The position numbers and the translations under genes were made by a program. The notes beneath the pieces were generated by a model, which saw only the letters and a list, made by a program, of their open reading frames with translations, was not told the origin of the DNA and made no database searches. This document shows positions 11,456-35,266 of a DNA stretch of 64,000 nt, one piece after another. Source of the DNA: a bacterium. GTDB lineage: Bacteria > Pseudomonadota > Alphaproteobacteria > Rhizobiales > JAKIUO01. The DNA lies in the NCBI GenBank assembly GCA_024228495.1, contig JAAETJ010000576.1, forward strand, positions 1,658 through 65,657, written 5' to 3'. Within the stretch, counting starts at the first letter, position 1. Each line of letters begins with the position of its first letter.

Positions 11456-11456
11456 G

Positions 11457-18229: not shown

Positions 18230-18245
18230 TAAGTGGGCTGACGGC

Positions 18246-20234: not shown

Positions 20235-20995
20235 GTGACGATCTGTCCAGGAGTTTTGGTTGCAAAGAGGTTTCTGTTGAAGAACGCCGCAGGCGGATAC
20301 GCCTTGTTTTTGACAATGTCGCTCGTCGCTATGACCTGATGAACGACTTTATGAGTTTTGGCGTCCATCGGTTGTGGAAGAAATCGCTTGTACGGCTGAC
20401 GCAGCGCTATCCGGGAGACCAGATTGTTGATCTTGCCGGGGGAACGGGTGATATTGCACGGCTTCTTGCAAAGAAGCGTGCGAGTCGTACCACGGTTGTG
20501 GATGCCAGCCTGGAGATGATGCTTGTCGGCCGGAAGAGCACAGACCATCTGATTGATTGGGTGTGCGCGGAAGGGGAAGCCCTGCCGATTGGTAGCAACA
20601 GTCTTGATCTCGTAACAGTGTCTTTTGGATTGCGGAATATGACATCTCCGACGAAAGCCCTTGTTGAAGTGTTACGTTGCCTCAAACCGAGCGGTGGATT
20701 TGTCTGCCTGGAGTTTTCTCGTCCGCAGTCCTGGTTCCGACCTTTCTATGATCTCTATTCCTTTATTGTCATACCTCGTCTGGGTTCCATGATCGCTGGA
20801 GAGCCACGCGCCTACCAATATTTGATCGAGAGTATTCGCCGTTTTCCAGAACAACGGGATCTCGAAAGATTAATGACCAACGCCGGTTTTGAGAATGTAG
20901 GATATCGTAATTTAATGTTTGGCGTGGCCTGTTTGCATTGGGGAGAAAAAGGTATGGAGCAAGAAGAGAGTGCAAGAAGTGAGATGCTTAATTGA
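20231..20995 (+). CDS. ubiE: Demethylmenaquinone/ubiquinone C-methyltransferase (UbiE/MenG family)
   Basis: 254 aa. FDNVARRYDLMNDFMSFGVHRLWK and SAM motif VDLAGGTGD. 4-nt overlaps with both tlpA-like and menA. Confidence 0.85.
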   Translation: MSDDLSRSFGCKEVSVEERRRRIRLVFDNVARRYDLMNDFMSFGVHRLWKKSLVRLTQRYPGDQIVDLAGGTGDIARLLAKKRASRTTVVDASLEMMLVGRKSTDHLIDWVCAEGEALPIGSNSLDLVTVSFGLRNMTSPTKALVEVLRCLKPSGGFVCLEFSRPQSWFRPFYDLYSFIVIPRLGSMIAGEPRAYQYLIESIRRFPEQRDLERLMTNAGFENVGYRNLMFGVACLHWGEKGMEQEESARSEMLN

Positions 20996-21984
20996 TGTCA
21001 TTTGTACTATTACGCACTGACCTGAAACTCTGGTTTATGGCCATTCGACCTTTAACACTTCCGTTGTCGGCTACTCCAGTACTCGTTGGAACCACGCTGG
21101 CTATCGCGGTTAGTGAAGTGCTCAACTGGTTTGTTTTACTAGCAAGTCTGGTCGCGGCGATCTCGATTCAGGTTGGCACAAATCTGTTAAACGATGCAGA
21201 AGATTATGAACGCGGTAATGACACACCCGAGCGGCGCGGGCCGCCGCGCGTCACAGCAAAAGGCTGGGCATCTTCAGAAGAAGTACACGAGGCTGCCACC
21301 ATTGCATTTTTCATCGCAGCTATTGCCGGACTCTATCTCATCAGCATCGGAGGCTGGCCGATTTTTTGGCTTGGGTTGCTTTCTATCATGGCCGGCATTT
21401 CCTATTCGTCAGGGCCGGTTCCAATCTCTCACACCCCGTTGGGAGAGATTTTCGTGTTCTTTTTTTTTGGAATAGTCGCTGTTGCCGGGACTTTCTATTT
21501 GCAAACCGGTTTTGTCTCGTCAGAAGCGCTATTTTCTGGCATGGCGATGGGGAGTTTCGCGGCAGCTGTTCTCTATACCAATAATGCCCGTGACTTGAAG
21601 GAAGACCGCGTGGCCGGCCGGCGGACACTCGCCATGTTCAGCAATGATTATTTTTTTGGTAAACGCGGAGAAGTAAAAGCAAATCGCAGGAATTTGGTCA
21701 GCACAGCGATCTATACGCTGTTTCTACTAGCACCATTCGGTTTTCTGGGAAGGCAGGTTCAACTTCTAGAGACAAATATCAAAACTTTTCAGGAAGTTTC
21801 CGGGCTACAGCCGACCTCTCCTTCAGCTTTTTGGCTGTCGTTATTCTGTCTGCCTGGCGCCTTATATGCCATATACGCTTTTTTTAACGCTGAAACCGGA
21901 GGACAGTATAACCGCCTTCTGGTCATGACGATTGGTTTGCAACTTCTGTTTGCGACTTTGACCTGCATCGGAATACTGATTTAA
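20992..21984 (+). CDS. menA: 1,4-dihydroxy-2-naphthoate polyprenyltransferase (UbiA superfamily, MenA-like)
   Basis: 330 aa polytopic protein. NLLNDAEDYERGND (NxxxD-type prenyl-PP motif) and second motif YTNNARDLKEDRVAGRRTLA. Confidence 0.75.
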   Translation: MMSFVLLRTDLKLWFMAIRPLTLPLSATPVLVGTTLAIAVSEVLNWFVLLASLVAAISIQVGTNLLNDAEDYERGNDTPERRGPPRVTAKGWASSEEVHEAATIAFFIAAIAGLYLISIGGWPIFWLGLLSIMAGISYSSGPVPISHTPLGEIFVFFFFGIVAVAGTFYLQTGFVSSEALFSGMAMGSFAAAVLYTNNARDLKEDRVAGRRTLAMFSNDYFFGKRGEVKANRRNLVSTAIYTLFLLAPFGFLGRQVQLLETNIKTFQEVSGLQPTSPSAFWLSLFCLPGALYAIYAFFNAETGGQYNRLLVMTIGLQLLFATLTCIGILI

Positions 21985-22000
21985 ACAGGATGGACGGGTT

Positions 22001-22897
22001 ATGGAAAGCGCAAATATCGACATATTATTAGTGTTATCCAAACTTCTTTCCAGACTACTTCCTCTGGGTCTGGCTTTTATTATGTTTTCGCTCGGACTAA
22101 CTCTAAGAATAGCGGATTTTGCGCGCGTTTTCGTCAATCCCCGCGGTATTCTTATTGGCCTTTTTCTGCAGATAGTTATATTACCCTTGGCTGCTTTCAG
22201 CTTGCTACAAAGCTGGTCAGTGAGTTCGGTATTGGCTGTCGGCATCATGATTCTCGCCGGGGCTCCCGGCGGCATTACCTCAAATCTGCTTACGCAACTG
22301 GCGCGAGGGGATACCGCTCTTTCCGTTATGCTGACTGCAATTAGCTCACTCGCAGGAATGGTGACCGTCCCGTTTATTGTCGGTTTTTCCATAAGCTATT
22401 TCATGCCGGAAAAACTGGTCACTGATCTGCCGGTCTCTAACTTGATAATCGGTGTGTTTTTGGTCTCTACTTTACCGGTCATGATAGGGCTCACCATAAA
22501 TCAGATCTGGCCTCAAAGGGCCAGGCAAATTTCTCATACTGCCAAACCATTATCGACTGGTATTTTTCTGCTCATTGTTCTGGGCGCTTTTATATCTTCG
22601 TGGCAGGTCATGATGGAGAATATATCGGTTATTGGCCCCTTTATGCTGCTCTTGAATGCTCTTATCATGATAGCGGGGTGGCTGATGGCGCTCGGGGGCG
22701 GCCTTTCCAGGCCGTCAGCGACAGCCATCGCTCTTGAAGGTGGGCTTCAGAACGGCGCGCTCGGAATTTTTGTCGCTCTCACCCTATTGCGGGATGAGAC
22801 CATGATGATCCCTAGCATCACCTATGCCCTCATCATGAATATAACGGCGGCCGTGATGATTTTCTGGCGGTTTAAAAAGGCCTCGCACCGGCTCTAA
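22001..22897 (+). CDS. Bile acid:sodium symporter (BASS/SBF) family transporter
   Basis: 298 aa with about 9-10 TM segments. SBF-like stretches LAFIMFSLGLTL and LAGAPGGITSNLLT. Confidence 0.7.
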   Translation: MESANIDILLVLSKLLSRLLPLGLAFIMFSLGLTLRIADFARVFVNPRGILIGLFLQIVILPLAAFSLLQSWSVSSVLAVGIMILAGAPGGITSNLLTQLARGDTALSVMLTAISSLAGMVTVPFIVGFSISYFMPEKLVTDLPVSNLIIGVFLVSTLPVMIGLTINQIWPQRARQISHTAKPLSTGIFLLIVLGAFISSWQVMMENISVIGPFMLLLNALIMIAGWLMALGGGLSRPSATAIALEGGLQNGALGIFVALTLLRDETMMIPSITYALIMNITAAVMIFWRFKKASHRL

Positions 22898-23790
22898 GGT
22901 AAGTCACCGCGCCGAAATATCAAATAGCCAAGCGTGCCCAGTACTAATCCCAGAAGGGCAGGATAAAATAGCGCCCAAGCGAGATAGCCAGCATATCCAA
23001 GATTGTCTAGGATAATATAAGCCGATGGCCCCAGCATGATTAGCTGGGGATCGAAGATCATCATGGCACCGGCACGAAAAGCTTGCAACGGATTGAGCAG
23101 CGCGATTATCACGACAAGGCCGGTTGGAGCCTGTTCCTGAATCATCAATCCAAGCAGGATCAGGTCAAGGAACAAGAGCAGTAAAAGCCAGATGAAGAAC
23201 GCGGCTCCTTGAGCAATGTCCGTTGCTCTGGTCATCGAAGAGATTAAAAAGCCGATACCAAGGAAACAGATGGCCAGTGAAACAAGCATGCCGGTGTAAA
23301 GTGCAAATTCACGCCATGGCAGATCGGCCCCTTTCAGAACCCCGTAAAGGGAGCCAAGAAGCATTGCTGCGAAAACCGGAATAAATACCACCGCAAAGCG
23401 GCCGATAAAGCGTCCCCAATACCATGCTTTCAGAGAGACTGGCAGGGAGAGCATATATTCAAATACACCCGCTTCACGGTCGCCAGCCAGAGATCGTACA
23501 GTTGTAATCAGAACGAAGATCGGCAAAATGGCCATGGAAAGCTGGATATAGGTCACGAGCATGCGTGATAGGCCCGTAAAACCCATGATACGGCTGTCAG
23601 CAAGACCAAATATAAACAGTGAAGTAATGATGCCGCCAAACACCAGAGAATAGAGCAGGAACCATTTGGCGCGCAGGGATTCGGCAACATCCAGACGTGC
23701 AGTTAGCAACAGGTCATTGGCGGAGAGCCCGGTTTCATCTGCTTGACGCTGTGAACCTTTAAAATCTAATCGCATCGTATTCATGTCCAA
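22894..23790 (-). CDS. nosY: ABC-2 type permease NosY
   Basis: 298 aa polytopic membrane protein at the end of the nosD-G-H-F-L-Y string. Confidence 0.75.
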   Translation of the reverse strand: MDMNTMRLDFKGSQRQADETGLSANDLLLTARLDVAESLRAKWFLLYSLVFGGIITSLFIFGLADSRIMGFTGLSRMLVTYIQLSMAILPIFVLITTVRSLAGDREAGVFEYMLSLPVSLKAWYWGRFIGRFAVVFIPVFAAMLLGSLYGVLKGADLPWREFALYTGMLVSLAICFLGIGFLISSMTRATDIAQGAAFFIWLLLLLFLDLILLGLMIQEQAPTGLVVIIALLNPLQAFRAGAMMIFDPQLIMLGPSAYIILDNLGYAGYLAWALFYPALLGLVLGTLGYLIFRRGDLP

Positions 23791-23817
23791 AAACTCGTTC
23801 TATTGATCGTTAAAGCC

Positions 23818-24291
23818 CTAGGAGGACCGCTGTTCGGCTGGAAGGCAGTGATAGGTCGATCCGCGTTGTCTTACTTTTTTTACCATTTCTTCAAAACTGA
23901 CCGAACCCTTGCGATTGTCTTCGACTGCCCCAAATCCATAATTCATCGGGGTTGTTTGGTTGGGCATGTAGCGCACTTTGCGGGCGTCAAGCCACTTTGA
24001 ACCAGTATCCATATCCATTACCCACAGTTCGACCTTTGGATCATTTTTCCAGGTTTGGACGTCGAGCCAATGGACAAGTTCTCCCATGTCATCAAATTTG
24101 TATGCCTTGTGCTTTGGCCCCCCCCGTAATTGTGCTGCGTAATGTCGATCCGAAATCAACATGCGGCAAACTTCACAGGTATCTCTGTCCCATTTGATTT
24201 CAACAGGACCTGTTTCAGGGTCTCCAAAACAACCCGCTGTCAACAAGGGCAGCGCAATTACAAATACAATTCTGGCCAACAGCTTGTTCAT
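23818..24291 (-). CDS. nosL: Copper-chaperone lipoprotein NosL
   Basis: 157 aa. Lipobox LLTAGC, then DRDTCEVCRMLISDRHYAAQL, typical of NosL. ATGA overlap with the nosF stop. Confidence 0.8.
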   Translation of the reverse strand: MNKLLARIVFVIALPLLTAGCFGDPETGPVEIKWDRDTCEVCRMLISDRHYAAQLRGGPKHKAYKFDDMGELVHWLDVQTWKNDPKVELWVMDMDTGSKWLDARKVRYMPNQTTPMNYGFGAVEDNRKGSVSFEEMVKKVRQRGSTYHCLPAEQRSS

Positions 24292-25163
24292 TGACGTTTC
24301 CCTTTTTGCACTTCCTGGACGGCTTCTATTTGCACTGAGGCTAATACTCCAGCATAGCGGGACAGCGTACCCAGAAAGCGTAGTCGGTCAGGGGCTGCGA
24401 CTTCCCCCTTCCATTGAAGTTCTGTTGCGTCGCTGGTGAAGTTCCATTCCCCGATTGCTTTGGCAAAGGCATCATTGGGGCGGGTTAAAACCAGCGTGGA
24501 TTTCTGCAATGCAGCTCCATCTACCATGTCACTTACACGGTCATCCAGAACAATACGTCCGCGGTCCATCTCTATCACTCTGTTAACGAGGCTTGAAACT
24601 TCCTCAAGTCGATGAGATGAAATGAGGATAGGTCTGTCAATGCGCTCCGACAATAGCTCAAACAGGATTTGCCGGGCCGTCGGATCAAGATTGGCAGTCG
24701 GCTCATCCAGAATAAGGAGTTTTGTTTCACGGCCAAGAGCAATGGCAACAAGTATCTTTTGTTTTTGTCCGCCAGATAGTCTGTTGAATGGCTTGGTCTT
24801 GACCTCGGAATAGTCAAGTCCCATGCGTTCAGTCAGCTCAATCATATGGTCCGGGCTGGCATTGCAAACACCGGCAGAAAAATGAATGAGCTCGAATACT
24901 GGCATTTTCAGAGGCGGTGGAAGTTGTGGTACAAAACCGATATCAGAGAGTACCTTGGTTCGCTCATGGCGCGGCGAAATACCGTCGATTTCAGCAAGCC
25001 CTTCGTGAACATATTGCCCCATGAGACATCTTATCAGTGTGGTTTTCCCAGCCCCGTTGGAGCCAATCAGGGCGACCCGGTCGTCACTGGCGATGTCAAG
25101 CGAGAGGTTGTCGAGGACCGTGTGGGCACGAAAGGTTTTGCTGATGTTAGACAGGCGGATCAT
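24288..25163 (-). CDS. nosF: ABC ATPase NosF
   Basis: ORF 24288..25214. Start moved to the ATG at 25163 (MIRLSNISKTF), which overlaps the nosH stop as ATGA. Walker A GSNGAGKTT, signature LSGGQKQK, Walker B LLILDEPT. Confidence 0.85.
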   Translation of the reverse strand: MIRLSNISKTFRAHTVLDNLSLDIASDDRVALIGSNGAGKTTLIRCLMGQYVHEGLAEIDGISPRHERTKVLSDIGFVPQLPPPLKMPVFELIHFSAGVCNASPDHMIELTERMGLDYSEVKTKPFNRLSGGQKQKILVAIALGRETKLLILDEPTANLDPTARQILFELLSERIDRPILISSHRLEEVSSLVNRVIEMDRGRIVLDDRVSDMVDGAALQKSTLVLTRPNDAFAKAIGEWNFTSDATELQWKGEVAAPDRLRFLGTLSRYAGVLASVQIEAVQEVQKGKRQ

Positions 25164-26137
25164 ATGAGGTCCCCGGTTCCACGGATTTTGAAATTCAATG
25201 CGCCTGTTGGGCAAACCTCAAGACACATTGCACAGCGTGTGCAGTCCGCGCCGATGTCGATTATCTCGTCATGTGCACGGTTTTTCTTTGTCATCTCCAG
25301 TACATGCGGCACCATGCAGACATTGCGGCATTCTCCCTCGTGCAGACAATGATTGAGATCATAGCGAATGACTACCGGTGAGATACTACCAACAAAGCCA
25401 TATGTCAGGCCGATCGGGCAGATATATCGGCACCAGAAGCGTCTTGAATAAAAGATTTCGATGAGCAGCAATACCGCAACCAAAACCAATCCGAACCCGG
25501 CACCATAGATCAATGACCGGCTCAAAATACCAACTGGATTGACGGTTTCAAATACAGTGTAGCCTGTGATGAAGGCGAGGGCTGCAAATACTACCCACAT
25601 GACGGTTCTGGTAGATCGACGCATCGGGTGATCTTTCACGATACCCTTGTCAACGAGCTTGATATGCAGCATTTCAGCAATTTCTGCCAGCAGATGATAG
25701 GGACATACCCAGGAACAAAAGGAACGACCGCCAACGAACCACCAGATCAGGAGCACTGTAACGACGCCAATAACAAGATTGATCAAAATAACTTTGTAGG
25801 CTAGCACCACTTGCAGGGCGGAATTCAAATCGGCCAGATGAAAGCCGACAAAGCGCGATGCAGTTAGCGCTCCCTCGACAAGCTGAACATCAAACCAATA
25901 GGACAATACGAATATCATGTTGACGATGATAATCGAGGCCCAACGCTGGATGCGCCAGCGATAATTTTTGACCTTGTTGCCCAGTTCTTCGTGAATAGAG
26001 GCAATACGGAGTTTACGCTGTTCGGGGGTTTGTTTGAAAGTGTGAATATCCCGGGCAGCCTGAGAGTGGTCGTCCTTACTCCACTTTTGAGGGGCACTAC
26101 CAAGCATGGTGCGTAATTCGTCGATAAAAAACTTCAT
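25160..26137 (-). CDS. nosH: NapH-like membrane-bound iron-sulfur protein NosH (putative quinol dehydrogenase subunit)
   Basis: ORF 25160..26161. Start at 26137 (MKFFIDEL) overlaps the nosG stop as ATGA. About 4 TM segments, CSWVCP and CRYICP motifs, and C-terminal ferredoxin motifs CLHEGECRNVC and CTRCAMCLEVCP. Confidence 0.75.
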   Translation of the reverse strand: MKFFIDELRTMLGSAPQKWSKDDHSQAARDIHTFKQTPEQRKLRIASIHEELGNKVKNYRWRIQRWASIIIVNMIFVLSYWFDVQLVEGALTASRFVGFHLADLNSALQVVLAYKVILINLVIGVVTVLLIWWFVGGRSFCSWVCPYHLLAEIAEMLHIKLVDKGIVKDHPMRRSTRTVMWVVFAALAFITGYTVFETVNPVGILSRSLIYGAGFGLVLVAVLLLIEIFYSRRFWCRYICPIGLTYGFVGSISPVVIRYDLNHCLHEGECRNVCMVPHVLEMTKKNRAHDEIIDIGADCTRCAMCLEVCPTGALNFKIRGTGDLI

Positions 26138-26955
26138 GCCTGCTTTCCTTTCTGGTCCCATTTTTTGCGTTCATCTATGATGATTGCAGCGGGTTCCACC
26201 GGGCAAATCATTTCGCACATACCGCACCCAACGCAGGCTTCATGAACAACGGGTTTACGCCGTTTGTCATCGGGCTTATCGCTCACTGGTTGCAGACTAA
26301 TGGCGTCTTTGATCGGGCATTCGCGTACACACAAATCACACAGTGGGAGATCATATTTATGATCGCTGATTTTGATGGGATTCCATCGATCAACCTTGAC
26401 GTAGCGATGCAGTCCATTGAATTTGGCCCCGCGCGCGATGCCTTTAAATCCTTTGCCCTGGTGAGCCAGGCATAGATCGGGTTTGTCGAGGCGAGCAAGT
26501 CCCATACGAGTCTGCTCTTTTTTGTCGAGGTCATGAGACAAGGCGCCGGTGGGGCAGGCGAGAACACACTGCACCACATCGCAAGAAAAATCACAGGCTT
26601 GTTTGCGGGCGTCAAGATAGGGGACACCAATGCCAAACCCTTCTCTGATATCAGCGAGTTTGATGGCTTCTACCGGGCATACCTGTACGCACTGCCCGCA
26701 TTTAATACATGATGCTAGAAACTCCTGCTCGTCGAGAGCACCGGGGGGGCGCAAGCGGAGTTCTTTGGCGTTCATGATCGGCACATAGCCAAGCAGTGAA
26801 ACGCCAATGGTAGCTCCCCCCGCCAGGAAGGATAGCAAAAGAGCGCGTCGTTCCCGCTCCTTGCGTGTGGGCAATCGATGGCGTGGTGGTTGGTTGGTTA
26901 CGGGTTTGTTCCTGGTGGAATTGTTGTCTGTTGTCGTCATGTCATTTGACCGCAT
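26134..26955 (-). CDS. nosG: NapG-like Tat-exported poly-ferredoxin NosG
   Basis: 273 aa. Tat-like RERRALLLSFLAGGATIG. FeS motifs CIKCGQCVQVCP, CVLACP, CDLCVRECP, CVGCGMCEMICP. An alternative start at 26940 lies 1 nt after the nosD stop. Confidence 0.75.
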   Translation of the reverse strand: MRSNDMTTTDNNSTRNKPVTNQPPRHRLPTRKERERRALLLSFLAGGATIGVSLLGYVPIMNAKELRLRPPGALDEQEFLASCIKCGQCVQVCPVEAIKLADIREGFGIGVPYLDARKQACDFSCDVVQCVLACPTGALSHDLDKKEQTRMGLARLDKPDLCLAHQGKGFKGIARGAKFNGLHRYVKVDRWNPIKISDHKYDLPLCDLCVRECPIKDAISLQPVSDKPDDKRRKPVVHEACVGCGMCEMICPVEPAAIIIDERKKWDQKGKQA

Positions 26956-28384
26956 CGATATTGAACGGGTCCAGGCGTTTCATGCTGGTCCCGGATTTAG
27001 TGTTGGCATTTGTAGCTCCCCCAAAGGTCTTTAATGTCTGCCCCGCATTGCCATTTGATTTGTCACTAGCAGCGTTGGTGAACGGTTTAAAGATTCTCGA
27101 AACTCGAGGTTTTTTATCTTCGAGCATCAACAAAGGTGTTGTGAACGGTGCAAGGCGTTCCAAGAAATCGAGCATGGAAAGCACGGGTGCACCTCTGAAA
27201 AAAGCAGCCGGTTTTACATCCATCCAGAGGCGGTCAGCATAGACTTTTGGGCGGTAGGGGGAGTCGCCGATCTTGTTATCATCGCCATCAAACCCCTGAT
27301 AGTCATCCCAGTAGTTGCCTTCCCAGATATTGTGAGTTGCGCCCGCGAATGAGCTAACCGAGACATGATGGCTATTGCTGGAGAAAATATTGTCTTTAAA
27401 ATGGTTGCCAGGCCAATCATTAAGAAACGCGACGCCTAAATCGTTGTAGGCAATCTTGTTGCGGTAAATACGATTTGTCGTGTCGGGCTGGAACGGCGAC
27501 AGGTCAAGATAAAGACCTGTGCTGTTATATAATATATCATTGTCGTGAATATCGCAGTTACTGGCTTCCTTGAAACCGATACCAACGCCTGCAGCACCAA
27601 GTGCCTGAACGACCCTGTTGCCACGGATAACCACACTGTCAGAATACATCAAAAAGATGCCGACAGCATTTTTATAGAAGCTGTTGTTTTCGACGAGATT
27701 ATATTTCGAATACATGAAATGCAGGCCGTAACGACCGCCAGCAACATCATTGTTGGCGATGACGTTGTCGGCGGAATACCATACCACTATGTCACGAGAA
27801 TTACGGATCTTGTTTTTTTCGATCCGGTTGTTTCGCGAATACCATAGGCGTATGGCGTCGCCTCTGATGCCAAGCGTAGCATCGCTTTTCGACGAGATCA
27901 TATTGTTCCGAATAACGTTATTACTTGACTGCTGCAGATCTATGCCGAACAGGCTTTCGGTAATCGTGTTATTTTTAATGACATTGAAGTCACCGCGCAC
28001 CTGAATACCAGCGTCAATATCATTGTGTTGTGCACCGGTATTTGTGAGATACAGATTCTTGAGCACGGCACCGTTGGTTTTTAGGTAGATCACTGAGCCT
28101 TTGCCACCTGCATCAATAGAAACCTTGTTCTGTCCATCCAGGGTGATGGCTTTGTTGATGGTCACTGGGCCTTGGTAGATGCCTGGAGGAGGGGTGAGAA
28201 TATCCCCTTGTTTGGAGCGGTCAATAAGTGTTTGCAGGTTTTTCAACCTTGAGGCTGCATAGGCTTTTTGTGGGTTGTTTCCGGTCAATAGATATGAACC
28301 GCAAGTGATTGCACCAATTGCCAAAAGGCTATAGACGGCCACAGGAAATCGGTGATTTGCGGTAATTTTTATCAGACTGATCAC
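26942..28384 (-). CDS. nosD: Periplasmic parallel-beta-helix copper-cluster maturation protein NosD
   Basis: 480 aa with an N-terminal signal/anchor. Repetitive ...N.I..N.. beta-helix repeats (IKNNTITESLFGIDL, VIRNNMISS, IEKNKIRNS, VIANNDVAGG, VENNSFYKN). Confidence 0.85.
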   Translation of the reverse strand: MISLIKITANHRFPVAVYSLLAIGAITCGSYLLTGNNPQKAYAASRLKNLQTLIDRSKQGDILTPPPGIYQGPVTINKAITLDGQNKVSIDAGGKGSVIYLKTNGAVLKNLYLTNTGAQHNDIDAGIQVRGDFNVIKNNTITESLFGIDLQQSSNNVIRNNMISSKSDATLGIRGDAIRLWYSRNNRIEKNKIRNSRDIVVWYSADNVIANNDVAGGRYGLHFMYSKYNLVENNSFYKNAVGIFLMYSDSVVIRGNRVVQALGAAGVGIGFKEASNCDIHDNDILYNSTGLYLDLSPFQPDTTNRIYRNKIAYNDLGVAFLNDWPGNHFKDNIFSSNSHHVSVSSFAGATHNIWEGNYWDDYQGFDGDDNKIGDSPYRPKVYADRLWMDVKPAAFFRGAPVLSMLDFLERLAPFTTPLLMLEDKKPRVSRIFKPFTNAASDKSNGNAGQTLKTFGGATNANTKSGTSMKRLDPFNIDAVK

Positions 28385-28442
28385 AATTTATTTCCTTCCC
28401 AAATAAACCGTTTATCCTCCCGCAACGGCCTCTACAAAAACA

Positions 28443-29741
28443 CTAAGAGTTAATCTCGCTCAGGTGTTTGCGCCGGACAAGGGCCGCAAAAGTCAGCAGG
28501 GCCGCCATCAACATCATCAGCGCAAAGCCGATTTCTGGATAGGAGTGGGTTTTGAATTGCGCCACTTTTCCCTGGCCAAATACTGTTGGCATGAAGGGCT
28601 TAAGGGTAAAGGCTCCCATCTCGTTGAGTGTGTGTCCATACCACCAGAGCCATGCAGAATATTCAATGAGGAAGAACAGTGGCAGTCCGATCGGTACAAG
28701 AATAAGCAACCAGTGTAACAAGCTGTTATCACGCCCTGCAAAAACCAGAAATACCATGCCGAGTATGATGATCCCGAATAGAGTATCGCCTGCCAGTTTT
28801 ATGGTCGCTACCATTGGTAGATTGACCTCGGGATTGTTAAACCAGCGACCAAGTGCTTTTTCGTAATGCCAAGCCATAACCTGGCGACCGGTTCCAGTCC
28901 ACTCTACACCTTCGCCTTTGTTCTTTTGTGCCTGACCCGCATCATAAACGCCTTTTAGAACCTCGATATTCCGTTCTTTACCGCTTTTCCGGCTGTTTTC
29001 TGCCTCGGCGAGGATCTGCTTGAGAGTTTTCGATTTACCGGTTTGGCTACCGCTCCCTTCGTCGAGACGGGCAATAATATCCGACAGGCGTTTTTGGCCG
29101 CTCTTTTTCAATGACTTTTGAAAGTCGGTTTTACTAGCATTGGCGCCAATCCCACTTTCTAGCAAGGATTCTTGTAATTTTTCGATGATCGGGCTAATGG
29201 CTTCCCCTTCTTCCTCATGGCCTTGCCCTAGCGAGGTAACCATAGCGTTGAGATAGCCACCGGTCTGATATTTGATACCCCCCTTACCGTAGTAGGTAAG
29301 ATACATGAACAAAGCAATGACCGCGAAGCCCACGGCCATGAAAATCATACGTTTTTTGGGATCAAACAGATTAAAACCGATGAGCATTACGACCATCAGG
29401 CCGAACATGAATGGACCGAACATCTTTTCGACCACACCTCCGCTCGCAATCGGAAACATGCCGACAAAATGATTGATAGCATCCATCTCATGCACACAGT
29501 CGAGGGCTTTTTCTTCTTCGATCTCGGCTTTGTTCAACAGTTTGCAACCGTTGAAAACGCCATTGATGTGGAAGTTAATCTTGACACCATCGGGAAAGCT
29601 TTCGGCCGGGTAATTGGGGGCGGTCAACGACACCCACCAGATTGGCGAATAGAAGATTGCAATGAGCAGCAGCACGGATATCGCTGACAGAACATGAACG
29701 ACCATACTGCGTTTTTGTTGTTGTTGTTCGCTATCAGCCAT
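28443..29741 (-). CDS. nosB: Polytopic membrane protein, NosB-like by position in a clade II nos cluster
   Basis: 432 aa with about 6 TM helices. A hydrophilic insert of roughly 130 aa lies in the middle (GHEEEGEAISPIIEKLQ...KNKGEGVEW). It sits between the cytochromes and nosD. The identity is inferred from context only. Confidence 0.5.
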   Translation of the reverse strand: MADSEQQQQKRSMVVHVLSAISVLLLIAIFYSPIWWVSLTAPNYPAESFPDGVKINFHINGVFNGCKLLNKAEIEEEKALDCVHEMDAINHFVGMFPIASGGVVEKMFGPFMFGLMVVMLIGFNLFDPKKRMIFMAVGFAVIALFMYLTYYGKGGIKYQTGGYLNAMVTSLGQGHEEEGEAISPIIEKLQESLLESGIGANASKTDFQKSLKKSGQKRLSDIIARLDEGSGSQTGKSKTLKQILAEAENSRKSGKERNIEVLKGVYDAGQAQKNKGEGVEWTGTGRQVMAWHYEKALGRWFNNPEVNLPMVATIKLAGDTLFGIIILGMVFLVFAGRDNSLLHWLLILVPIGLPLFFLIEYSAWLWWYGHTLNEMGAFTLKPFMPTVFGQGKVAQFKTHSYPEIGFALMMLMAALLTFAALVRRKHLSEINS

Positions 29742-29859
29742 TGCAGCTTCATGCTCCTCGAAAAGGTCAAAGGAAACTGACCTACTGTTATAAATTCAGA
29801 TAAAGTGTGCTGGTTGTAACCAGACCACGCGAGGTCCGGTTACAACTCAAAATCGGGGA

Positions 29860-30621
29860 TCAATCATAATCTGGATTGAGCCAGTCCTTGCTTTTTGCAA
29901 CCTTGTCAGATGCTGGTTTCATGCGCGAAACATAGTCTACGACAGCTTTCATGTCCTTTTCGGTAAAGCCATTGATCTGTTTGATCATGTCAGGATTTGC
30001 ATTGCGGCGTTTTCCATCACGGATCCATTCGAACTGACGCAGCAAATATTTGTAGTGCTGTCCTTGAATGAGCGGGAAGAATTTAGTCTTGTGTCCTTCA
30101 CCATTTTCGCCGTGGCATTTGACACAGTTATCTTTGTAGAGCTTTGCACCATGCTCAAGGTCCGTACCGGCACCAACGCCGGGGTCCGGGTTCATCGGAA
30201 TATTTTCAATATATCGAGCGACAGCAGCGATGGCATATGGTCCACCACCTACTTCAGGAGCAGCGTTTTTGATCTCCTTTGGTAGCGCAAAGGGGTACAT
30301 TGTCGGGTTATCGCGGTTTTTGGCGCGAATATCTGCGAGCTGCTTGATGATCACTGTTGCAGGCTGTCCGGAAATTTGCGGGAACGTACCATCTTTCGAT
30401 CCCCATCCTTCAGTAAGGTGACAGGCCGAACAGATCTCGTAGACGGCGATACCGTCTTTTCTGATTTTGGCGAGTTCTTCAGGAGTTTTTTTCTTGAAGG
30501 TTTCGTAGATTTTGGTGGCCTCATCCTTTTCTCCACCTCCTTCATTCCAGGCCATAACTGGTGCGGAGGCTAAAATGCCGGCAGCAAGTGCACCTCCAAG
30601 GATCAGTTTTAATTTTGTCAT
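29860..30621 (-). CDS. Periplasmic dihaem c-type cytochrome (cytochrome c4-like)
   Basis: 253 aa with a signal peptide ending VMA. Two CxxCH motifs: CSACH and CVKCH. Confidence 0.85.
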   Translation of the reverse strand: MTKLKLILGGALAAGILASAPVMAWNEGGGEKDEATKIYETFKKKTPEELAKIRKDGIAVYEICSACHLTEGWGSKDGTFPQISGQPATVIIKQLADIRAKNRDNPTMYPFALPKEIKNAAPEVGGGPYAIAAVARYIENIPMNPDPGVGAGTDLEHGAKLYKDNCVKCHGENGEGHKTKFFPLIQGQHYKYLLRQFEWIRDGKRRNANPDMIKQINGFTEKDMKAVVDYVSRMKPASDKVAKSKDWLNPDYD

Positions 30622-30655
30622 GGTTTTTCCTTCTCAATGACATGTTTTCTAAAGA

Positions 30656-31519
30656 CTACTTTTTGCTCCGGTCGATCTGCGAAAGATATTCGGCAATCAT
30701 CGCAATCTGCTCATTCGACAGCTTTTTGACGAAGGGCAGCATGAGTTTACTTTTCCCATTGGATCTTGCTTTGTCCCTGATATCAACTAATTGCATGAAG
30801 ATATATTCGCGCTTTTGACCAGCAATAAATGGATATCCCTTGAGCGGTTTTCTACCTTCTTTACCGTGGCAGGAGACACACTTTTTGAATAGCTTTTTAC
30901 CTGTCGCAATGTTTTCGGCAGGGTAGGGTGTTTCCGGTATTTTGGGTTTGGCTGGCGGAAGATCCTTCAACCAGCTAGCCAACTGTACGATATCATCATT
31001 CGTAATACGAAACGCGCCTTCCGGATTGACAAGGGCGCCGCGCATCGATTCAGTACGATGATGGCCAGTATCAGCGTCGATGCCGCCTTTACGCTTGCCG
31101 GACATAATGTCCTTTATCTGGGCAATCATGTATTTTTTGTCTTGTCCAGCTATGGCTGGATAATAGGAAATGGCGCGCTGCCCCTTGCGCCCATGACAGG
31201 CCGCACAGGCTCCTTTACGCAAATAAATCTTGCGACCGGGGTGGCGCTTCTTTTTCTTTGGCTTGGCAGCGGCAACTGGTGTAGTTGCCTGTGTTGGGGT
31301 ATTCGCTACTGCCGGTACCGGTTTAGCTACTTCAACAGGCTGAGAAGCTTGTTTTGACGGAGCAGCAGCCATTTTGTCACCGGTATTATTAGCTTGTATT
31401 ATTTCCGATGATCCGGTTGGGTCATATGCGACATCAACGAGTACGCTAATGGCGTAAATCCCCAGAATGGAAATAATCAGCGCGATAGCAAACTGACCGG
31501 CAAACCTAAAGAAATGCAT
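30656..31519 (-). CDS. Membrane-anchored dihaem c-type cytochrome with a Pro/Ala/Lys-rich linker
   Basis: 287 aa. N-terminal TM helix FAIALIISILGIYAISVLV, linker ...PVEVAKPVPAVANTPTQATTPVAAAKPKKKK, and two CxxCH motifs (CAACH, CVSCH). Confidence 0.85.
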   Translation of the reverse strand: MHFFRFAGQFAIALIISILGIYAISVLVDVAYDPTGSSEIIQANNTGDKMAAAPSKQASQPVEVAKPVPAVANTPTQATTPVAAAKPKKKKRHPGRKIYLRKGACAACHGRKGQRAISYYPAIAGQDKKYMIAQIKDIMSGKRKGGIDADTGHHRTESMRGALVNPEGAFRITNDDIVQLASWLKDLPPAKPKIPETPYPAENIATGKKLFKKCVSCHGKEGRKPLKGYPFIAGQKREYIFMQLVDIRDKARSNGKSKLMLPFVKKLSNEQIAMIAEYLSQIDRSKK

Positions 31520-31593
31520 AAATTTTTCCTCACTAAAACTGATCAGGCAGATAGATAATTGTCGCCAAATACAGTTTTCCCTATTCCCGATTC

Positions 31594-31645
31594 AAAGAGG
31601 CAGGGCCAACGCTCCTGGAGTTGGTTTGGCCCTGCCTCTTTTTTT
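31594..31645. terminator. Strong symmetric hairpin (A-run / stem / T-run) between nosZ and the downstream nos genes
   Basis: AAAGAGGCAGGGCCAA (31594-31609) pairs with TTGGCCCTGCCTCTTT (31626-31641), and the T-run continues to 31645. It lies 28 nt after the nosZ stop on the - strand. Confidence 0.6.
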
Positions 31646-31672
31646 GATCTGGATCAATAGCAATAAATCAGG

Positions 31673-33967
31673 CTATTTGACCTTTTTGGCTCCGTTTTGC
31701 TCCAGATAGGTCTTGGCGCGCAGGCCCATATCAGCAGTCTTGACCTGATACTGGAACCATTGCTGTGCCCACAATGTGGCATTTTGCCAATCACCTTTTG
31801 CAGCGAAGTTTTCGGATTTCTTTTTGCTCTCAGCAGCAAAATTAAGCTGATCCGTAGCATCCGTTACGAGGCCGACAACAGTTGGGAAGTCCTTGAAGTT
31901 CCGCTCTGTGATAAACTTCACAACAGAGTTGATGACGCCCTGCGTCGCAACATTGTTTTTGATCTGTTTGTCATAGTCGGTCTTGGTGTATTTTGTGCCT
32001 TCCTTGAGGGCGGCATTTTCCAACTTGGTGCCTTTCGGGCGGACCATCATAATACCTTGCATTTCCAAATGCAGCGCTGAGCAGAACTCGGTGCAGTAGT
32101 ATGGGAATACACCTGAATTAGGAACTTTAAAGGTTGCTGAAGCGGTTTTACCCGGCTCGATCGACAAGTTGACATTATGACCGTAGATCGCGAAACCATG
32201 AGTTTCGTCTTCAGCACGTTCAACGTTGGTCAGATGCAGTGAGACCGTTTCACCTTCTTCAACCTCAATGATTTCAGGTGTGATATGTGAGCGGATCACC
32301 GTACCATAGACGTGCACGAGACCATCTTTGCGTACGATCTTCTCCCGACCTGGACGCGTACGGAATTCGGACCTTTTGTCGGTACGACTGTTGGTTCCCA
32401 ATTTATACCGCACCTTGGGTTTCAGCTTGTCAGCAGAGATTGCCACAACATAATGCGGTTCGCCAAGCGGCACAGCCATATCATAGAGAAGCTGCATCTT
32501 GTCGCCGGAAATATCGATCAACTGGTGGTTCTGTGGATGCAGAGGACCAACAGGGTTGAAGCGATCAATAGTTAGCTTGTTGAGTGCTACAAGATATTTG
32601 CCTTTTGGTGTGACGCTGTCACCTTCCATGGTGACGAGATGACCAATATTGTAATGGATGTGGATCTTGTCGAGCACCTTGAGGTTGCAGTAATCCCATT
32701 TGGTTACTTGGCTATCCACATAGATTGACGTATAGACGATACACTTTTTGCTGTCATACTGGGTATGAAGCGGACCAAGGCCAACCGATAGCTGGCCATG
32801 CAGGCTCTTTTTGAGATCAAGGATTGGAATGCCATAGGCATCTTTACCTGCGAAATCTTTTTTCTTGATCAGATCAAAGACCTTGGCGAAGCTGTAAACC
32901 GATGCATGTGTATCGAGCTTGCCGGCGACGATGAAGAACTTGCCGTCAGGGCTGATATCAACACCATGAGGTGATTTTGGTTCGGGGATTAGAAATAATA
33001 TCCCTTCTTTGATGGCTGTATCCATCATGATGACATTATGACCATTGATCTTGGTTGTTTTGCCTGCCTTGGCGACTTCGGCAGCTTTTTTCCAGTTGAT
33101 CATATGGACAAAGTCGGTATCTTTTTGCGAACAGCCAGCCTCGAACGGTGGACGTCCTTTCATGATGCCACCGACATAGCGTTCAGTACAGAACGAGTTG
33201 GTAAGCGACCAGCCATCACTGGGGCCCTTGCCGAAGTCGGAAAGATCCTGCGAGTAGGGTGGCAGTTCCAGCGAGAAGGATGCAGCCTCGTCAATCCGAC
33301 CTTTTTTGCGGTCAAATTTCCAATAGGTTACAGCTCCACGAAATTTTTCGTTGAACTGCGACAAAGGATAGTGCTTTCTATCAAGCGGTGCAGGATACTG
33401 AGCGGCTTGAATGATATAGTCGGTATTGGGTGAAACGAAAGGACCGCCATGCTCCGAACTCATGATCGGGTTTTTAACAATCTGCTTGGTTTCAAAATCC
33501 TTCATGTCAATAACGGCGATACGCGGATTGGCCTTGTCATTGATAAAGGCATATTCACCATCATATTCGCCTTTCGTTTCCGAAAAAGCGGGATGATGAG
33601 TATCACCGTAGGTAATTGTTGTATCGTTAATATCGCTGCCCTTTTTTAACACGGCCTTTGATTCATCATCAAAGCCATAACCCTGCCAGGGTTCGGGCGT
33701 AAACACGGCGATATATTTGAGGATACGCATAGAAGGGATGCCGTAGACAAATACTTGTCCGCTTTGACCTCCTGAGCTTAGTGCGATAAATTCATCGCGC
33801 CCGCCAGTAGGAATGTAGGTTTTAGCGGCGGCCAGGACGTCTTTTTGCGTCAGCCCACGTTCTTTCATCACCTCGTCAAGCGTTTTCGCGCTTGCGGAGT
33901 TGACCATGGCGGACATTCCAAGCCCAAAGGCTATAGCTGTCAGGCCATATATGTTACATTTTTTCAT
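31673..33967 (-). CDS. nosZ: Nitrous-oxide reductase NosZ, clade II (Sec-type signal), with a C-terminal extension
   Basis: 764 aa. Signal MKKCNIYGLTAIAFGLGMSAMVNSASA has no RR, and an in-frame TAA lies 7 codons upstream of the ATG. Beta-propeller His motifs include YGDTHHP. CuA motif YCTEFCSALHLEMQG. 118 aa follow MMVRPKG. Confidence 0.92.
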   Translation of the reverse strand: MKKCNIYGLTAIAFGLGMSAMVNSASAKTLDEVMKERGLTQKDVLAAAKTYIPTGGRDEFIALSSGGQSGQVFVYGIPSMRILKYIAVFTPEPWQGYGFDDESKAVLKKGSDINDTTITYGDTHHPAFSETKGEYDGEYAFINDKANPRIAVIDMKDFETKQIVKNPIMSSEHGGPFVSPNTDYIIQAAQYPAPLDRKHYPLSQFNEKFRGAVTYWKFDRKKGRIDEAASFSLELPPYSQDLSDFGKGPSDGWSLTNSFCTERYVGGIMKGRPPFEAGCSQKDTDFVHMINWKKAAEVAKAGKTTKINGHNVIMMDTAIKEGILFLIPEPKSPHGVDISPDGKFFIVAGKLDTHASVYSFAKVFDLIKKKDFAGKDAYGIPILDLKKSLHGQLSVGLGPLHTQYDSKKCIVYTSIYVDSQVTKWDYCNLKVLDKIHIHYNIGHLVTMEGDSVTPKGKYLVALNKLTIDRFNPVGPLHPQNHQLIDISGDKMQLLYDMAVPLGEPHYVVAISADKLKPKVRYKLGTNSRTDKRSEFRTRPGREKIVRKDGLVHVYGTVIRSHITPEIIEVEEGETVSLHLTNVERAEDETHGFAIYGHNVNLSIEPGKTASATFKVPNSGVFPYYCTEFCSALHLEMQGIMMVRPKGTKLENAALKEGTKYTKTDYDKQIKNNVATQGVINSVVKFITERNFKDFPTVVGLVTDATDQLNFAAESKKKSENFAAKGDWQNATLWAQQWFQYQVKTADMGLRAKTYLEQNGAKKVK

Positions 33968-34090
33968 TACGGTTTCCCAGTTGAGTTAAAGAGGCCAGTA
34001 TTGACCGAACCCGTTGGATAGCTTTCCCGTCAGATGGTGATAGAGTAAACAATCCAACTTTAAGATTTTCACGGAAGAGCGGCAGCGAAA

Positions 34091-34124
34091 TTGATAAATG
34101 TCAATATTTTTTAATGAATGTCAA
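34091..34124. promoter_or_regulatory. Two tandem FNR/Dnr/NnrR-type boxes in the nosZ / cytochrome c divergent promoter region
   Basis: TTGAT-AAAT-GTCAA (34091-34104, 9/10 to TTGAT-N4-ATCAA) and TTAAT-GAAT-GTCAA (34111-34124, 8/10). Their centres are 20 bp apart. The first box centre is about 130 nt upstream of the nosZ ATG. Confidence 0.55.
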
Positions 34125-34879
34125 GAATTTGGCGAATTATGACTTATTATAAGCGGTCTAATTGTCGCAGGAAGAAGGGATTTGATCGAGTGTTGGTTTG
34201 TCAGCGTATTGTGAGCGCCATTGTTACGATGTTCCTGCTCGTGCTTTTTTCTAAATTAGGCGCAGTAGAGAGTTTTGATCGAGAACTGGCTATCGAAATA
34301 AATTATACTTGTGCCGGTTGTCATGGCGAGTACGGGCAGGGCGTCGCAGACGGAACCTATCCACGTCTTGCCGGGATGGATGCAGATTATCTTGCTCGTC
34401 AGCTTAGATTATTCAAATCACGCAAGCGGCTCAACATTCCCATGTTTCCCTACGCGATTGATCGTGATTTGCCAGAAGAAGATGTCGTTGCTATTTCGCA
34501 ATTTCTTTCGTCAATCGAGCTGCTCGCGAAATTGCCACCAATCGATGACAAGACCTACGATCCGCTAAAACGTTTGAAGCTTGCGAAACAGGTTTTTAGT
34601 GTTCCTCGTTATTCAGGGGATGTCAAAACAGGAAAATTTTTTTATAACAAGGAGTGTGCCAACTGTCATGGCCGGGACGGGCTCGGGAAACGCAAGAAAA
34701 AAACTGTTGTTCCCCGTCTAGCCGGGCAACACAGCCTATATTTATTGCGCCAGATTGAAATCATAGGCAAAGGCTTGCGACTACACGACGAAGCAGGTGA
34801 TGCAGCAGTTTTTAAGTCTTATTCGAAAACGGAGATTGCCAATGTTCTTGCCTACCTCTCGGTACTCGATGATGAATAG
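34118..34879 (+). CDS. Dihaem c-type cytochrome (c4-like), divergent from nosZ
   Basis: 253-aa ORF with two CxxCH motifs (CAGCH, CANCH). The real start is probably downstream: GTG at 34190 gives a clean signal peptide MLVCQRIVSAIVTMFLLVLFSKLGA, or ATG at 34139. The ORF-track ATG lies inside FNR box 2. Confidence 0.8.
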   Translation: MSRIWRIMTYYKRSNCRRKKGFDRVLVCQRIVSAIVTMFLLVLFSKLGAVESFDRELAIEINYTCAGCHGEYGQGVADGTYPRLAGMDADYLARQLRLFKSRKRLNIPMFPYAIDRDLPEEDVVAISQFLSSIELLAKLPPIDDKTYDPLKRLKLAKQVFSVPRYSGDVKTGKFFYNKECANCHGRDGLGKRKKKTVVPRLAGQHSLYLLRQIEIIGKGLRLHDEAGDAAVFKSYSKTEIANVLAYLSVLDDE

Positions 34880-35023
34880 GCGCAAATTAGCCCCTTTGGT
34901 CGTTGGGGTGATAGCTCTTTTTTCTGTGGTTAATCATTTGACGCGGTTGCCCTGATACAGGGAAATTGTAAAAAACCTGCGTCACGTAGCGACCTGCGTC
35001 ACTGCTCGTTCAAGGGGCGTCAT

Positions 35024-35266
35024 ATGCAAAATGTTGATTTGCATGGGGCGGATCTCTCCAATGTGAAATTTGAAAATGCGCGAATGAGTGGTTGTGATCT
35101 ATCCGGGGTGTTGCTTGTCGGTGCAAATTTCAAATGGGCGGCACTGCCCAAATGCAATATGCGTCGTACAGACCTGCGTGGTGCTGACTTTGTTCATGCC
35201 AATCTCGATGAAGTTGATTTGACAGGTTCAGATATGCGCAAGGCCTTCTTATTCGTACTTCTTTGA
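35024..35266 (+). CDS. Pentapeptide-repeat protein, 5' part of a probably frameshifted gene
   Basis: 80 aa of A(D/N)LXX-type repeats (ADLSN VKFEN ARMSG CDLSG ... VDLTG SDMRK) that end abruptly. Confidence 0.55.
   Translation: MQNVDLHGADLSNVKFENARMSGCDLSGVLLVGANFKWAALPKCNMRRTDLRGADFVHANLDEVDLTGSDMRKAFLFVLL

Follow-up and report, generated by a model that had tools for sequence, protein, structure and literature searches.

The 64,000-nucleotide stretch analysed here (positions 1,658 to 65,657 of contig JAAETJ010000576.1, assembly GCA_024228495.1; hereafter the window) very probably carries an intact nitrous oxide (N2O) respiration cluster of the proteobacterial/myxococcal clade II type at 22894-33967, in the chromosome of its host, an uncultured marine member of the Hyphomicrobiales. 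The cluster consists of ten contiguous open reading frames (ORFs) on the minus strand, namely nosZ, two genes for dihaem cytochromes c, nosB, nosD, nosG, nosH, nosF, nosL and nosY. This reading is based on the scores of NosZ, NosD and NosH above the curated cutoffs of their models, on copper-ligand residues that do not vary among homologues, on a gene order shared by every complete related locus, on a family profile for NosL and signature motifs for NosB, and on ORFs that are all full length with tight or overlapping junctions. In addition, NosZ nests in a single alphaproteobacterial group, the composition of the cluster is native-like, companion genes recur next to nos genes in other loci, FNR-type boxes are enriched and lie in relevant intergenic regions, and two intergenic hairpins stand out from background.

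The genome scan, in which each species was represented by one genome, gave hundreds of relatives, and the best 80 loci were analysed. Companion genes were scanned in 84 loci, window included, and gene order was compared among the 54 related loci that display nosZ through nosY complete.

NosZ and its copper ligands

NosZ (31673-33967, minus strand; 764 amino acids) was assigned to the clade II, Sec-dependent nitrous-oxide reductases, with 866.6 bits on model TIGR04246 (cutoff 625; E = 6.6e-261). The score on TIGR04244, the model for enzymes exported by twin-arginine translocation (Tat), was 374.6 bits, below the cutoff of 625, and that on the clade III L-NosZ model was 176 (cutoff 700). Solved NosZ structures, which we take to be those of clade I enzymes, were matched with only 239-313 bits. 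By-eye reading of the N-terminus gave MKKCNIYGLTAIAFGLGMSAMVNSASA, followed by K, without RR. Moreover, an in-frame TAA is present at codon -7 upstream of nosZ, and a longer leader is therefore ruled out.

In 82 homologues, no variation was seen at the CuA residues H590, C625, C629, H633 and M636 or at the propeller histidines, among them the DTHH pair at 124 and 125. The closest homologue is 90% identical; a record with exactly the NosZ sequence of the window was not found in the collection searched. Past the cupredoxin domain, residues 645-764 (window 31673-32035) form a C-terminal extension of about 120 amino acids that contains no CXXCH and has no Pfam match; it is kept at full length in homologues.

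A neighbour-joining tree of 82 relatives was calculated without bootstrap and without clade I or III sequences. The window NosZ fell among proteins annotated as Sec-dependent NosZ, beside the 90%-identical relative and among metagenome-assembled genomes (MAGs) of Hyphomicrobiales. The alphaproteobacterial NosZ proteins formed one group, sister to a gammaproteobacterial group; Alpha-, Gamma- and Betaproteobacteria and most Myxococcota formed separate groups, and some Myxococcota and Deltaproteobacteria were placed in a further basal group. Close NosZ homologues were also found in Rhodobium orientis, Afifella and Magnetovibrio. The public records of Rhodobium orientis and of one Afifella carry the label 'cytochrome C', which looks like a mis-annotation.

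Accessory genes of the nos cluster

The gene at the NosC1 position (30656-31519, minus strand) encodes a 287-amino-acid dihaem cytochrome c with two CXXCH motifs, PF00034 and PF13442 domains, an N-terminal membrane helix and a Pro/Ala-rich linker. The gene at the NosC2 position (29860-30621, minus strand) encodes a dihaem c4-type cytochrome c of 253 amino acids, with two CXXCH motifs and a Sec signal, and is kept in essentially all related loci.

The next gene (28443-29741, minus strand) encodes a 432-amino-acid polytopic membrane protein with a long hydrophilic insert. Neither Pfam nor NCBIfam offers a curated NosB model, and no Pfam, NCBIfam or PDB match was obtained for this protein. It was identified as NosB from its place between the cytochrome genes and nosD and from two motifs, INHFVGM (position 89) and YGHT (position 368), the counterparts of LNHYIGM and YGHN described for NosB in PMC9697520. 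The motif INH[YF][VI]GM was present in all but one of the NosB candidates detected in related loci. The length of NosB ranges from about 210 to 450 amino acids among relatives, because the hydrophilic insert between INH[YF][VI]GM and YGH[TSN] varies, and the window protein is one of the long forms.

The product of nosD (26942-28384, minus strand) is a periplasmic beta-helix maturation protein (TIGR04247, 381.9 bits, cutoff 300, E = 2.3e-114; PF05048). The nosG gene (26134-26955, minus strand), whose position, like that of nosH, is kept across related loci, encodes a Tat-exported, NapG-like ferredoxin with the signal RRALLLSF and four [4Fe-4S] motifs. The nosH gene (25160-26137, minus strand; longest ORF 25160-26161) encodes a NapH-like membrane subunit of a quinol dehydrogenase (TIGR02163, 238.7 bits, cutoff 213, E = 7.2e-71) that carries CSWVCP, CRYICP and two Fe-S motifs. 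The pair resembles NapGH of the periplasmic nitrate reductase in that NosH passes the NapH/MauN subfamily cutoff and NosG shares with NapG the Tat signal and the presence of four Fe-S motifs. It differs from NapGH systems in that the genes lie inside a nos operon without napA or napB, and in that NosG scored below the cutoffs of the NapG equivalog models, which were nevertheless its best matches (152.7 and 128.5 bits).

The nosF gene (24288-25163, minus strand; longest ORF 24288-25214) encodes an ATPase of the ATP-binding cassette (ABC) type (PF00005), and its position is conserved. The nosL gene (23818-24291, minus strand) encodes a putative copper-chaperone lipoprotein of 157 amino acids with the lipobox LLTAGC and a CEVCRM motif. 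When scored alone on PF05573, NosL reached 20.6 against a cutoff of 24. This family was matched by 21 of the 24 NosL orthologues. The NosL family profile aligned with almost the entire NosL chains of PDB 7osf and 7znq (E = 5e-6), and the identity of NosL is supported in this way through its family. The nosY gene (22894-23790, minus strand), which encodes an ABC-2 permease (PF12679, ABC2_membrane_2, E = 6.5e-19), holds the conserved last position of the cluster.

The nosF/nosL junction is an ATGA overlap. The same overlap at nosG/nosH and nosH/nosF needs NosH to start at the 9th codon (ATG 26137) and NosF at the 18th (ATG 25163) of the longest ORFs, which overlap instead by 28 nt (nosG/nosH) and 55 nt (nosH/nosF). 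The internal ATG starts are the more likely reading.

No FMN_bind, ApbE or full NosR match was found among the window ORFs scanned, and only a weak local NosR match (E = 1.4e-4) was obtained, to the NapH-like part of NosH. A 695-amino-acid poly-ferredoxin at 9368-11455 was considered as a NosR candidate and rejected; it has Fer4-type domains only and belongs to a DUF3305/3306 molybdoenzyme locus.

These results are in good agreement with the gene content described in an earlier note on this DNA, which had been made from the sequence alone, and the features that it had placed at 22894-33967 were all found there. The Sec-type signal of NosZ, the missing twin arginine and the TAA seven codons upstream were confirmed by direct reading. 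The NapG-like and NapH-like proteins were recognised by their motifs and the TIGR02163 score, and the NosB-like polytopic membrane protein and the c-type cytochromes by their motifs and CXXCH pairs. Its three ATGA overlaps are real, given the internal starts of NosH and NosF, and its statement that nosR and nosX are absent held for the ORFs scanned. Taken as a whole, its description of a Sec-dependent, nosR-less clade II cluster with nosB, nosG and nosH was upheld by model scores and motifs.

Gene order and distribution among related loci

The order Z-c-c-B-D-G-H-F-L-Y, with the F-L-Y tail, was identical to that of the window in all 54 complete related loci, and the collinear nos loci span Alpha-, Beta- and Gammaproteobacteria as well as Myxococcota. 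The order had been called non-canonical in the earlier note, a view that this collinearity does not support: it differs from that of Wolinella, yet it is canonical for the proteobacterial/myxococcal clade II subgroup. The two dihaem cytochromes that the note had found wedged after nosZ are indeed present, but they are no oddity, as a cytochrome pair follows nosZ in nearly all complete related loci. The first cytochrome is a dihaem protein of 230-300 amino acids in essentially all alphaproteobacterial loci and a monohaem protein of about 105 amino acids outside the Alphaproteobacteria. The dihaem first cytochrome marks the alphaproteobacterial subgroup.

Alphaproteobacteria account for 26 of the best 80 genome loci, and the rest belong to Gammaproteobacteria, Betaproteobacteria and Myxococcota. 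The alphaproteobacterial carriers comprise Hyphomicrobiales, Rhodospirillales, Rhodobacterales and Robiginitomaculum, together with the cultured Rhodobium orientis and Magnetovibrio blakemorei. Moreover, a 'Sec-dependent nitrous-oxide reductase' is already named in public records of Magnetospira and Terasakiella, so that the cluster cannot be regarded as unusual for Alphaproteobacteria, as had been proposed. The clusters of Magnetospira sp. QH-2, Terasakiella, Rhodobium orientis DSM 11290, Afifella, Magnetovibrio blakemorei MV-1 and numerous MAGs of Hyphomicrobiales and Rhodospirillales share the architecture of the window with its two dihaem cytochromes. Their NosZ proteins are 74-90% identical to that of the window, and several are publicly annotated as Sec-dependent. 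In contrast, their neighbourhoods differ, with menA, ubiE, tlpA, BASS, third-cytochrome and pentapeptide genes placed or oriented otherwise.

The same gene order was found in the clade II loci of the Betaproteobacteria Azonexus/Dechloromonas (GCA_041909275.1; L093) and Sulfuritalea (GCA_021738385.1; L097), and in those of Gammaproteobacteria and Myxococcota. NosZ in these beta-, gamma- and myxococcal clusters is of the Sec type, has the same C-terminal extension and is about 70% identical to the window protein, whereas the first cytochrome is the monohaem form of about 105 amino acids instead of the membrane-anchored dihaem form of 287. A second, divergent NosD-like beta-helix gene was observed beyond the nos cluster or companion operon in L093 (11806-13029), L097 (9799-11001) and several Myxococcota loci; the window has no second copy.

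The nos order of Wolinella succinogenes is reportedly nosZ-B-D-G-C1-C2-H-F-Y-L. Both Wolinella and the window have a Sec-dependent NosZ, NosB, NosGH, two c-type cytochromes and NosDFYL, and neither has nosR or nosX. Unlike the Wolinella enzyme, the window NosZ has no haem c domain (no CXXCH); the window cytochromes are dihaem and lie between nosZ and nosB, whereas those of Wolinella lie between nosG and nosH; and the window cluster ends in F-L-Y, that of Wolinella in F-Y-L. With the clade I nosRZDFYLX clusters of Pseudomonas stutzeri and Paracoccus denitrificans (PDB 3sbp, 1fwx and 7osf), the window has in common the catalytic copper centres and the NosDFY and NosL machinery. It differs from them in export, which is by Sec and not by Tat, and in that NosB, NosG, NosH and the cytochromes replace NosR and NosX (ApbE).

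Candidate regulatory elements

An exact match to TTGA-N6-TCAA, the consensus used in PMC11539149, was found in the divergent intergenic region between nosZ and the gene for a third cytochrome c, where the candidate FNR/Crp-type box TTGACATTTATCAA occupies 34091-34104. A degenerate second copy, TTGACATTCATTAA, was read from the sequence about 20 nt further upstream of nosZ. A second exact palindrome, TTGATCCAGATCAA, lies at 31644-31657, between the nosZ stop and a hairpin. Exact boxes occur five times in the window against 2.0 expected, and three of the five fall between genes in anaerobic-respiration loci: one precedes nosZ, one follows it closely and one separates a TorD-like gene from moaA.

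The hairpin just after nosZ (31594-31641, minus strand) is a perfect 16-bp stem-loop of -40.2 kcal/mol (z = -5.9) and may serve as a partial terminator or mRNA stabiliser. A 14-bp stem-loop was found between the second cytochrome gene and nosB (29813-29846, minus strand), where the intergenic RNA has -40.5 kcal/mol (z = -4.6). Matches to sigma-70-like promoters were at chance level (24 against 22.7 expected), and no sigma-70 promoter is claimed. A search with Rfam gave no match anywhere in the window at gathering thresholds.

Genes accompanying the nos cluster

The functional unit is probably wider than nosZ-nosY and extends over about 19557-35556. The boundaries drawn earlier, 22894-33967, leave out conserved companion genes on both sides. 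Beyond nosY, four plus-strand genes form a companion operon. The first encodes a TlpA/ResA-type, membrane-anchored periplasmic thiol:disulfide oxidoreductase (19557-20234) with a WCESC motif, Redoxin and AhpC-TSA domains and 129 bits on NF047696 (cutoff 230). The second encodes a UbiE/MenG-type quinone C-methyltransferase (20231-20995; TIGR01934, 253 bits, cutoff 158), for which the equivalog models were all below cutoff. The third encodes a MenA-like 1,4-dihydroxy-2-naphthoate polyprenyltransferase (20992-21984; TIGR00751, 156 bits, cutoff 102), for which all NF0047xx equivalog models were below cutoff. This protein has two Asp-rich stretches, NDAEDYERGND and NNARDLKEDRVAGRRTL, presumably the catalytic motifs of the UbiA superfamily. 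The last gene encodes a BASS/SBF-family transporter (22001-22897; PF01758, 2.1e-33). It is convergent with nosY, and the two stop codons overlap by 4 nt (22894-22897), leaving no intergenic DNA at the inner end of the operon.

The same order, tlpA-ubiE-menA-BASS, was found as one co-directional block directly after nosY in the alphaproteobacterial locus L094, whose NosZ is 89% identical to that of the window, and in the betaproteobacterial loci L093 (Azonexus) and L097 (Sulfuritalea). In contrast to this co-directional arrangement, the operon of the window is inverted and convergent with nos, and remnants of insertion sequences (IS) lie at its outer end. Of the 84 loci scanned, 27 (the window among them) have parts of the companion set within 10 kb of the nos cluster; several arrangements occur, and the carriers are Alpha-, Beta- and Gammaproteobacteria. 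MenA homologues stand beside nos clusters in 14 genome loci, in addition to L093, L094 and L097.

On the other side of the cluster, the third dihaem cytochrome c is encoded at 34118-34879 (plus strand), divergent from nosZ, and a 73%-identical copy occupies the same position in L081. Homologues of it were detected beside the nos cluster in 24 related loci. Two small pentapeptide-repeat proteins (PF00805) are encoded at 35024-35266 and 35263-35556 (plus strand). The pentapeptide pair is also next to nos in L081 (70% and 61% identity), L009, L011 and L012, and a single pentapeptide gene (34% and 43%) is present in L020 and L025. In the nearest relative, L081, the third cytochrome and the pentapeptide genes are in the same arrangement as in the window, at 61-73% identity.

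Related genes were also seen in other surroundings. A MenA homologue 43% identical to that of the window is found in L096 (8001-8876), inside a locus with DUF3305/3306, TorD, molybdoenzyme and Mob/Moe/FdhD genes, of the same kind as that at 0.7-18 kb of the window. Another, 40% identical, is found in L095 (8001-12207) together with redoxin, SCP2 and two U32 peptidase genes resembling ubiT/U/V. In Robiginitomaculum (L015 and L016, about 6700-9040), a ubiTUV-like trio lies directly upstream of nosZ. Quinone-biosynthesis genes thus recurrently accompany nos clusters of this type. In the literature searched, no paper was found that links nosZ clusters with menA/UbiA-type or quinone methyltransferase genes, and absence there is no proof of novelty.

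Composition and surroundings of the cluster

The nos genes have a GC content of 0.47-0.53 and a GC content at third codon positions (GC3) of 0.47-0.55, and the backbone genes at 36.5-64 kb are mostly at 0.48-0.54 and 0.48-0.57, respectively. Across 27-36 kb, GC is 2-3 points lower. Tetranucleotide correlation was 0.85-0.92 for the cluster and 0.89-0.92 for the backbone; it was lowest in a decayed stretch at 17.5-22.5 kb and at the left end of the window (1-5 kb). Thus, the comparison of cluster and backbone composition that the earlier note had suggested revealed no distinct profile for the cluster. In other hosts, the GC content of the nos cluster follows that of the host, from 45% to 65%. 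The identity to the nearest relatives was 70-90% for nos proteins and 75-93% for backbone proteins.

The window contains no tRNA gene, and no integrase domain turned up in the window ORFs scanned. Furthermore, no convincing direct or inverted repeats were found to bracket 16-37 kb, the best pairs being chance-like (17-28 nt at 75-88%). A decayed or non-coding stretch at 17984-19126, at the left edge of the variable segment, contains fragments of an IS5-type transposase (DUF772; 17984-18229; E = 0.0095) and of an IS630-type transposase (DDE_3; 31 amino acids; 19031-19126; E = 1.1e-5, below the Pfam cutoff). The IS wrecks that had been placed at 17.96-19.3 kb are therefore present as two transposase fragments, but both are short and weakly scored. 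Between them, an ORF of 176 amino acids (18246-18776, minus strand) has two predicted C-terminal membrane helices and no family match.

Scanning metagenomes with MoeA2 yielded one close contig, that of the relative L084, which is 81.7% identical in DNA up to the stop of MoeA at 17958 and unrelated beyond it. For the relative L082, collinearity is confined to the part of the window right of about 36.3 kb, and it ends just left of purB, where L082 carries GGDEF and lactamase_B genes that are not in the window. No empty site was found in relatives, as the flanks of L082 and L084 are not joined to each other and L084 is not joined to purB. The nearest nos clusters, L081 and L094, are located elsewhere, one with Mla and tripartite ATP-independent periplasmic (TRAP) transporter genes and the other with cadherin and Calx-beta adhesin genes.

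Host backbone and neighbouring loci

The right flank of the window contains purB, purU, a trpB-like gene, an MMPL transporter gene, carB and greA, and continues as far as accC and accB. Two uncultured relatives share this gene order, with protein identities of 75-93%. The best named matches of CarB are from Methyloceanibacter (73-74%), and unnamed relatives reach 84-85%. The collinear flank and the CarB matches therefore identify a Hyphomicrobiales backbone, as the earlier note had supposed. The window CarB (43063-46485) has 1140 amino acids, against 1067-1094 in its eight closest homologues (78-85% identity) and 1135-1146 in Methyloceanibacter, which suggests an indel of about 50 amino acids that does not track overall similarity.

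At 58072-58632, the backbone part encodes a second redoxin/thioredoxin-like protein, adjoining MsbA-like, OmpA-family and MotA/ExbB-like genes. An ORF of 145 amino acids with a TTG start (35697-36134, minus strand) lies between the pentapeptide genes and purB. It matches DUF2946 with 24.5 bits (cutoff 23.7) and overlaps a plus-strand ORF of 112 amino acids without a family match. The DUF2946 family is often found beside copper-uptake genes.

The left part of the window (158-17957) is a large locus of a Tat-exported, formate-dehydrogenase-like Mo/W enzyme (772-3669). It also encodes a TorD-like chaperone, MoaA, FdhD, MobA, MobB, DUF3306 and DUF3305 proteins, the 695-amino-acid poly-ferredoxin, a protein of the biotin/lipoate-ligase family, a TupBCA-like (tungstate-type) ABC transporter and two tandem MoeA paralogues (15415-16707 and 16737-17957). 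Within this locus, positions 4857-4870 match the FNR-type consensus exactly.

Proposed mechanism and alternative explanations

Gene content, intact copper-ligand motifs, conserved order and conserved companion linkage were observed directly, and the mechanism is drawn from homology to named families. Apo-NosZ would be exported unfolded via Sec and loaded in the periplasm, where the NosDFY ABC complex and the lipoprotein chaperone NosL are predicted to fill CuA and CuZ. Electrons would leave the quinol pool via NosGH, that is, through the membrane subunit NosH and the Tat-exported poly-ferredoxin NosG. The two dihaem cytochromes c, of which one is anchored in the membrane and the other soluble, would then hand them to CuA, from which they would reach CuZ, the site of N2O reduction to N2. 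NosB, a membrane protein required in Wolinella, would take part. An FNR/Crp-family regulator that recognises the exact TTGA-N6-TCAA boxes probably activates expression, and the ratio of transcripts is probably determined by the two stem-loops, one behind nosZ and one behind the cytochrome pair. Two electron routes have been proposed for clade II (PMC11539149).

Several points weigh against the intact-cluster interpretation. Scored alone, NosG and NosL are under the curated cutoffs of their models, the signal-peptide calls were made by eye rather than with a predictor, and the NosZ tree has neither bootstrap support nor a clade I outgroup. In addition, the FNR-type box at 31644-31657 is followed by a hairpin that resembles a terminator, which would be unusual for a promoter element. 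Moreover, only 64 kb of the genome are visible; the remainder may carry a clade I cluster or nosR/nosX, or may lack a bc1 complex or a copper supply.

The earlier note had proposed that the cluster is a laterally acquired island. Its arrival as a recent island, brought into the Hyphomicrobiales backbone from a non-alphaproteobacterial clade II lineage, appears improbable to us and is mostly unsupported. The features in favour of mobility are the transposase fragments, the stop of L084 collinearity exactly at 17958, the end of L082 collinearity just left of purB, the different neighbourhoods of the nearest nos clusters and the slightly lower GC across 27-36 kb. However, GC3 and tetranucleotide profiles of the nos genes are within the backbone range, and the hallmarks of an island (a tRNA gene, an integrase domain, flanking repeats) were absent from what was searched. 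NosZ belongs to one alphaproteobacterial group in which the window is nested among Hyphomicrobiales MAGs, and the alpha-specific dihaem first cytochrome is present. Furthermore, nos and backbone proteins are similarly close to those of the nearest relatives, the GC of nos clusters tracks that of other hosts, and no relative offers a clean empty site. In our reading, the cluster has long resided in Alphaproteobacteria and was relocated locally; the segment in which it now lies, about 17.96-36.3 kb, is prone to rearrangement and has IS remnants at its border, and the relocation may have been IS-mediated. The role of the cluster can also be questioned, since an intact cluster could act as an electron sink that conserves no energy, or as an N2O detoxifier, instead of supporting growth. 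For the window this seems quite unlikely. In its favour, a Flavobacterium carrying clade II nosZ reportedly consumed N2O without growing (PMC9697520), and the window contains no recognisable nir or nor genes. However, the flavobacterial cluster contains only nosZ, a nosL-annotated gene argued to be a NosB-NosL fusion, nosD, nosF and nosY (PMC9697520), whereas in the window a complete NosGH quinol dehydrogenase is encoded together with NosB and three cytochromes. The FNR-type boxes and the neighbouring formate-dehydrogenase-like locus likewise fit an anaerobic respiratory programme.

The companion operon hints at a quinone link to NosGH. One conceivable, though doubtful, explanation is that proteobacterial clade II nos clusters carry their own quinone-supply module for NosGH, forming a self-contained chain from donor through quinone to N2O. 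MenA would prenylate 1,4-dihydroxy-2-naphthoate, perhaps imported by the BASS transporter, and the UbiE-type enzyme would methylate the product to (demethyl)menaquinone, the preferred donor of NosGH in this scheme. The TlpA-type reductase would maintain the reduced state of apo-NosZ, once exported by Sec, and of the apocytochromes, and in the window this quinone would also be fed by the neighbouring tungsten/molybdenum formate-dehydrogenase-like locus. The host lineage is expected to rely on ubiquinone, and no men or mqn genes were found within the 64-kb window. It is quite possible, if somewhat short of even, that the companion genes adjoin nos by chance or through shared anaerobic regulation, and that they are general housekeeping genes of quinone and thiol-redox metabolism without a dedicated function in N2O reduction. 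UbiE proteins are universal, the MenA homologues of L096 and L095 are in molybdoenzyme and ubiTUV-like contexts, comparison of the window with L094 shows lower conservation of the four companion genes (58-74%) than of the nos genes, and many related loci have no companion genes within 10 kb. However, the same four-gene order follows nosY in one alphaproteobacterial relative and two Betaproteobacteria, and linkage of parts of the set across classes, in about a third of the loci scanned, is not expected by chance.

Implications

Clade II carriers are regarded as important, under-studied sinks. The kind of cluster described here is already known, well populated and already annotated in many marine bacteria, and the locus adds one more marine Hyphomicrobiales carrier while leaving the picture of clade II clusters unchanged. 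The fixed order Z-c-c-B-D-G-H-F-L-Y across four major lineages and the alphaproteobacterial dihaem first cytochrome are useful for annotation. The less familiar feature is the neighbouring quinone-synthesis genes that travel with such clusters. If functional, the linkage of tlpA-ubiE-menA-BASS, and of the ubiTUV-like genes in Robiginitomaculum, would reveal which quinone feeds NosGH, and this matters for how much energy clade II N2O respiration yields.

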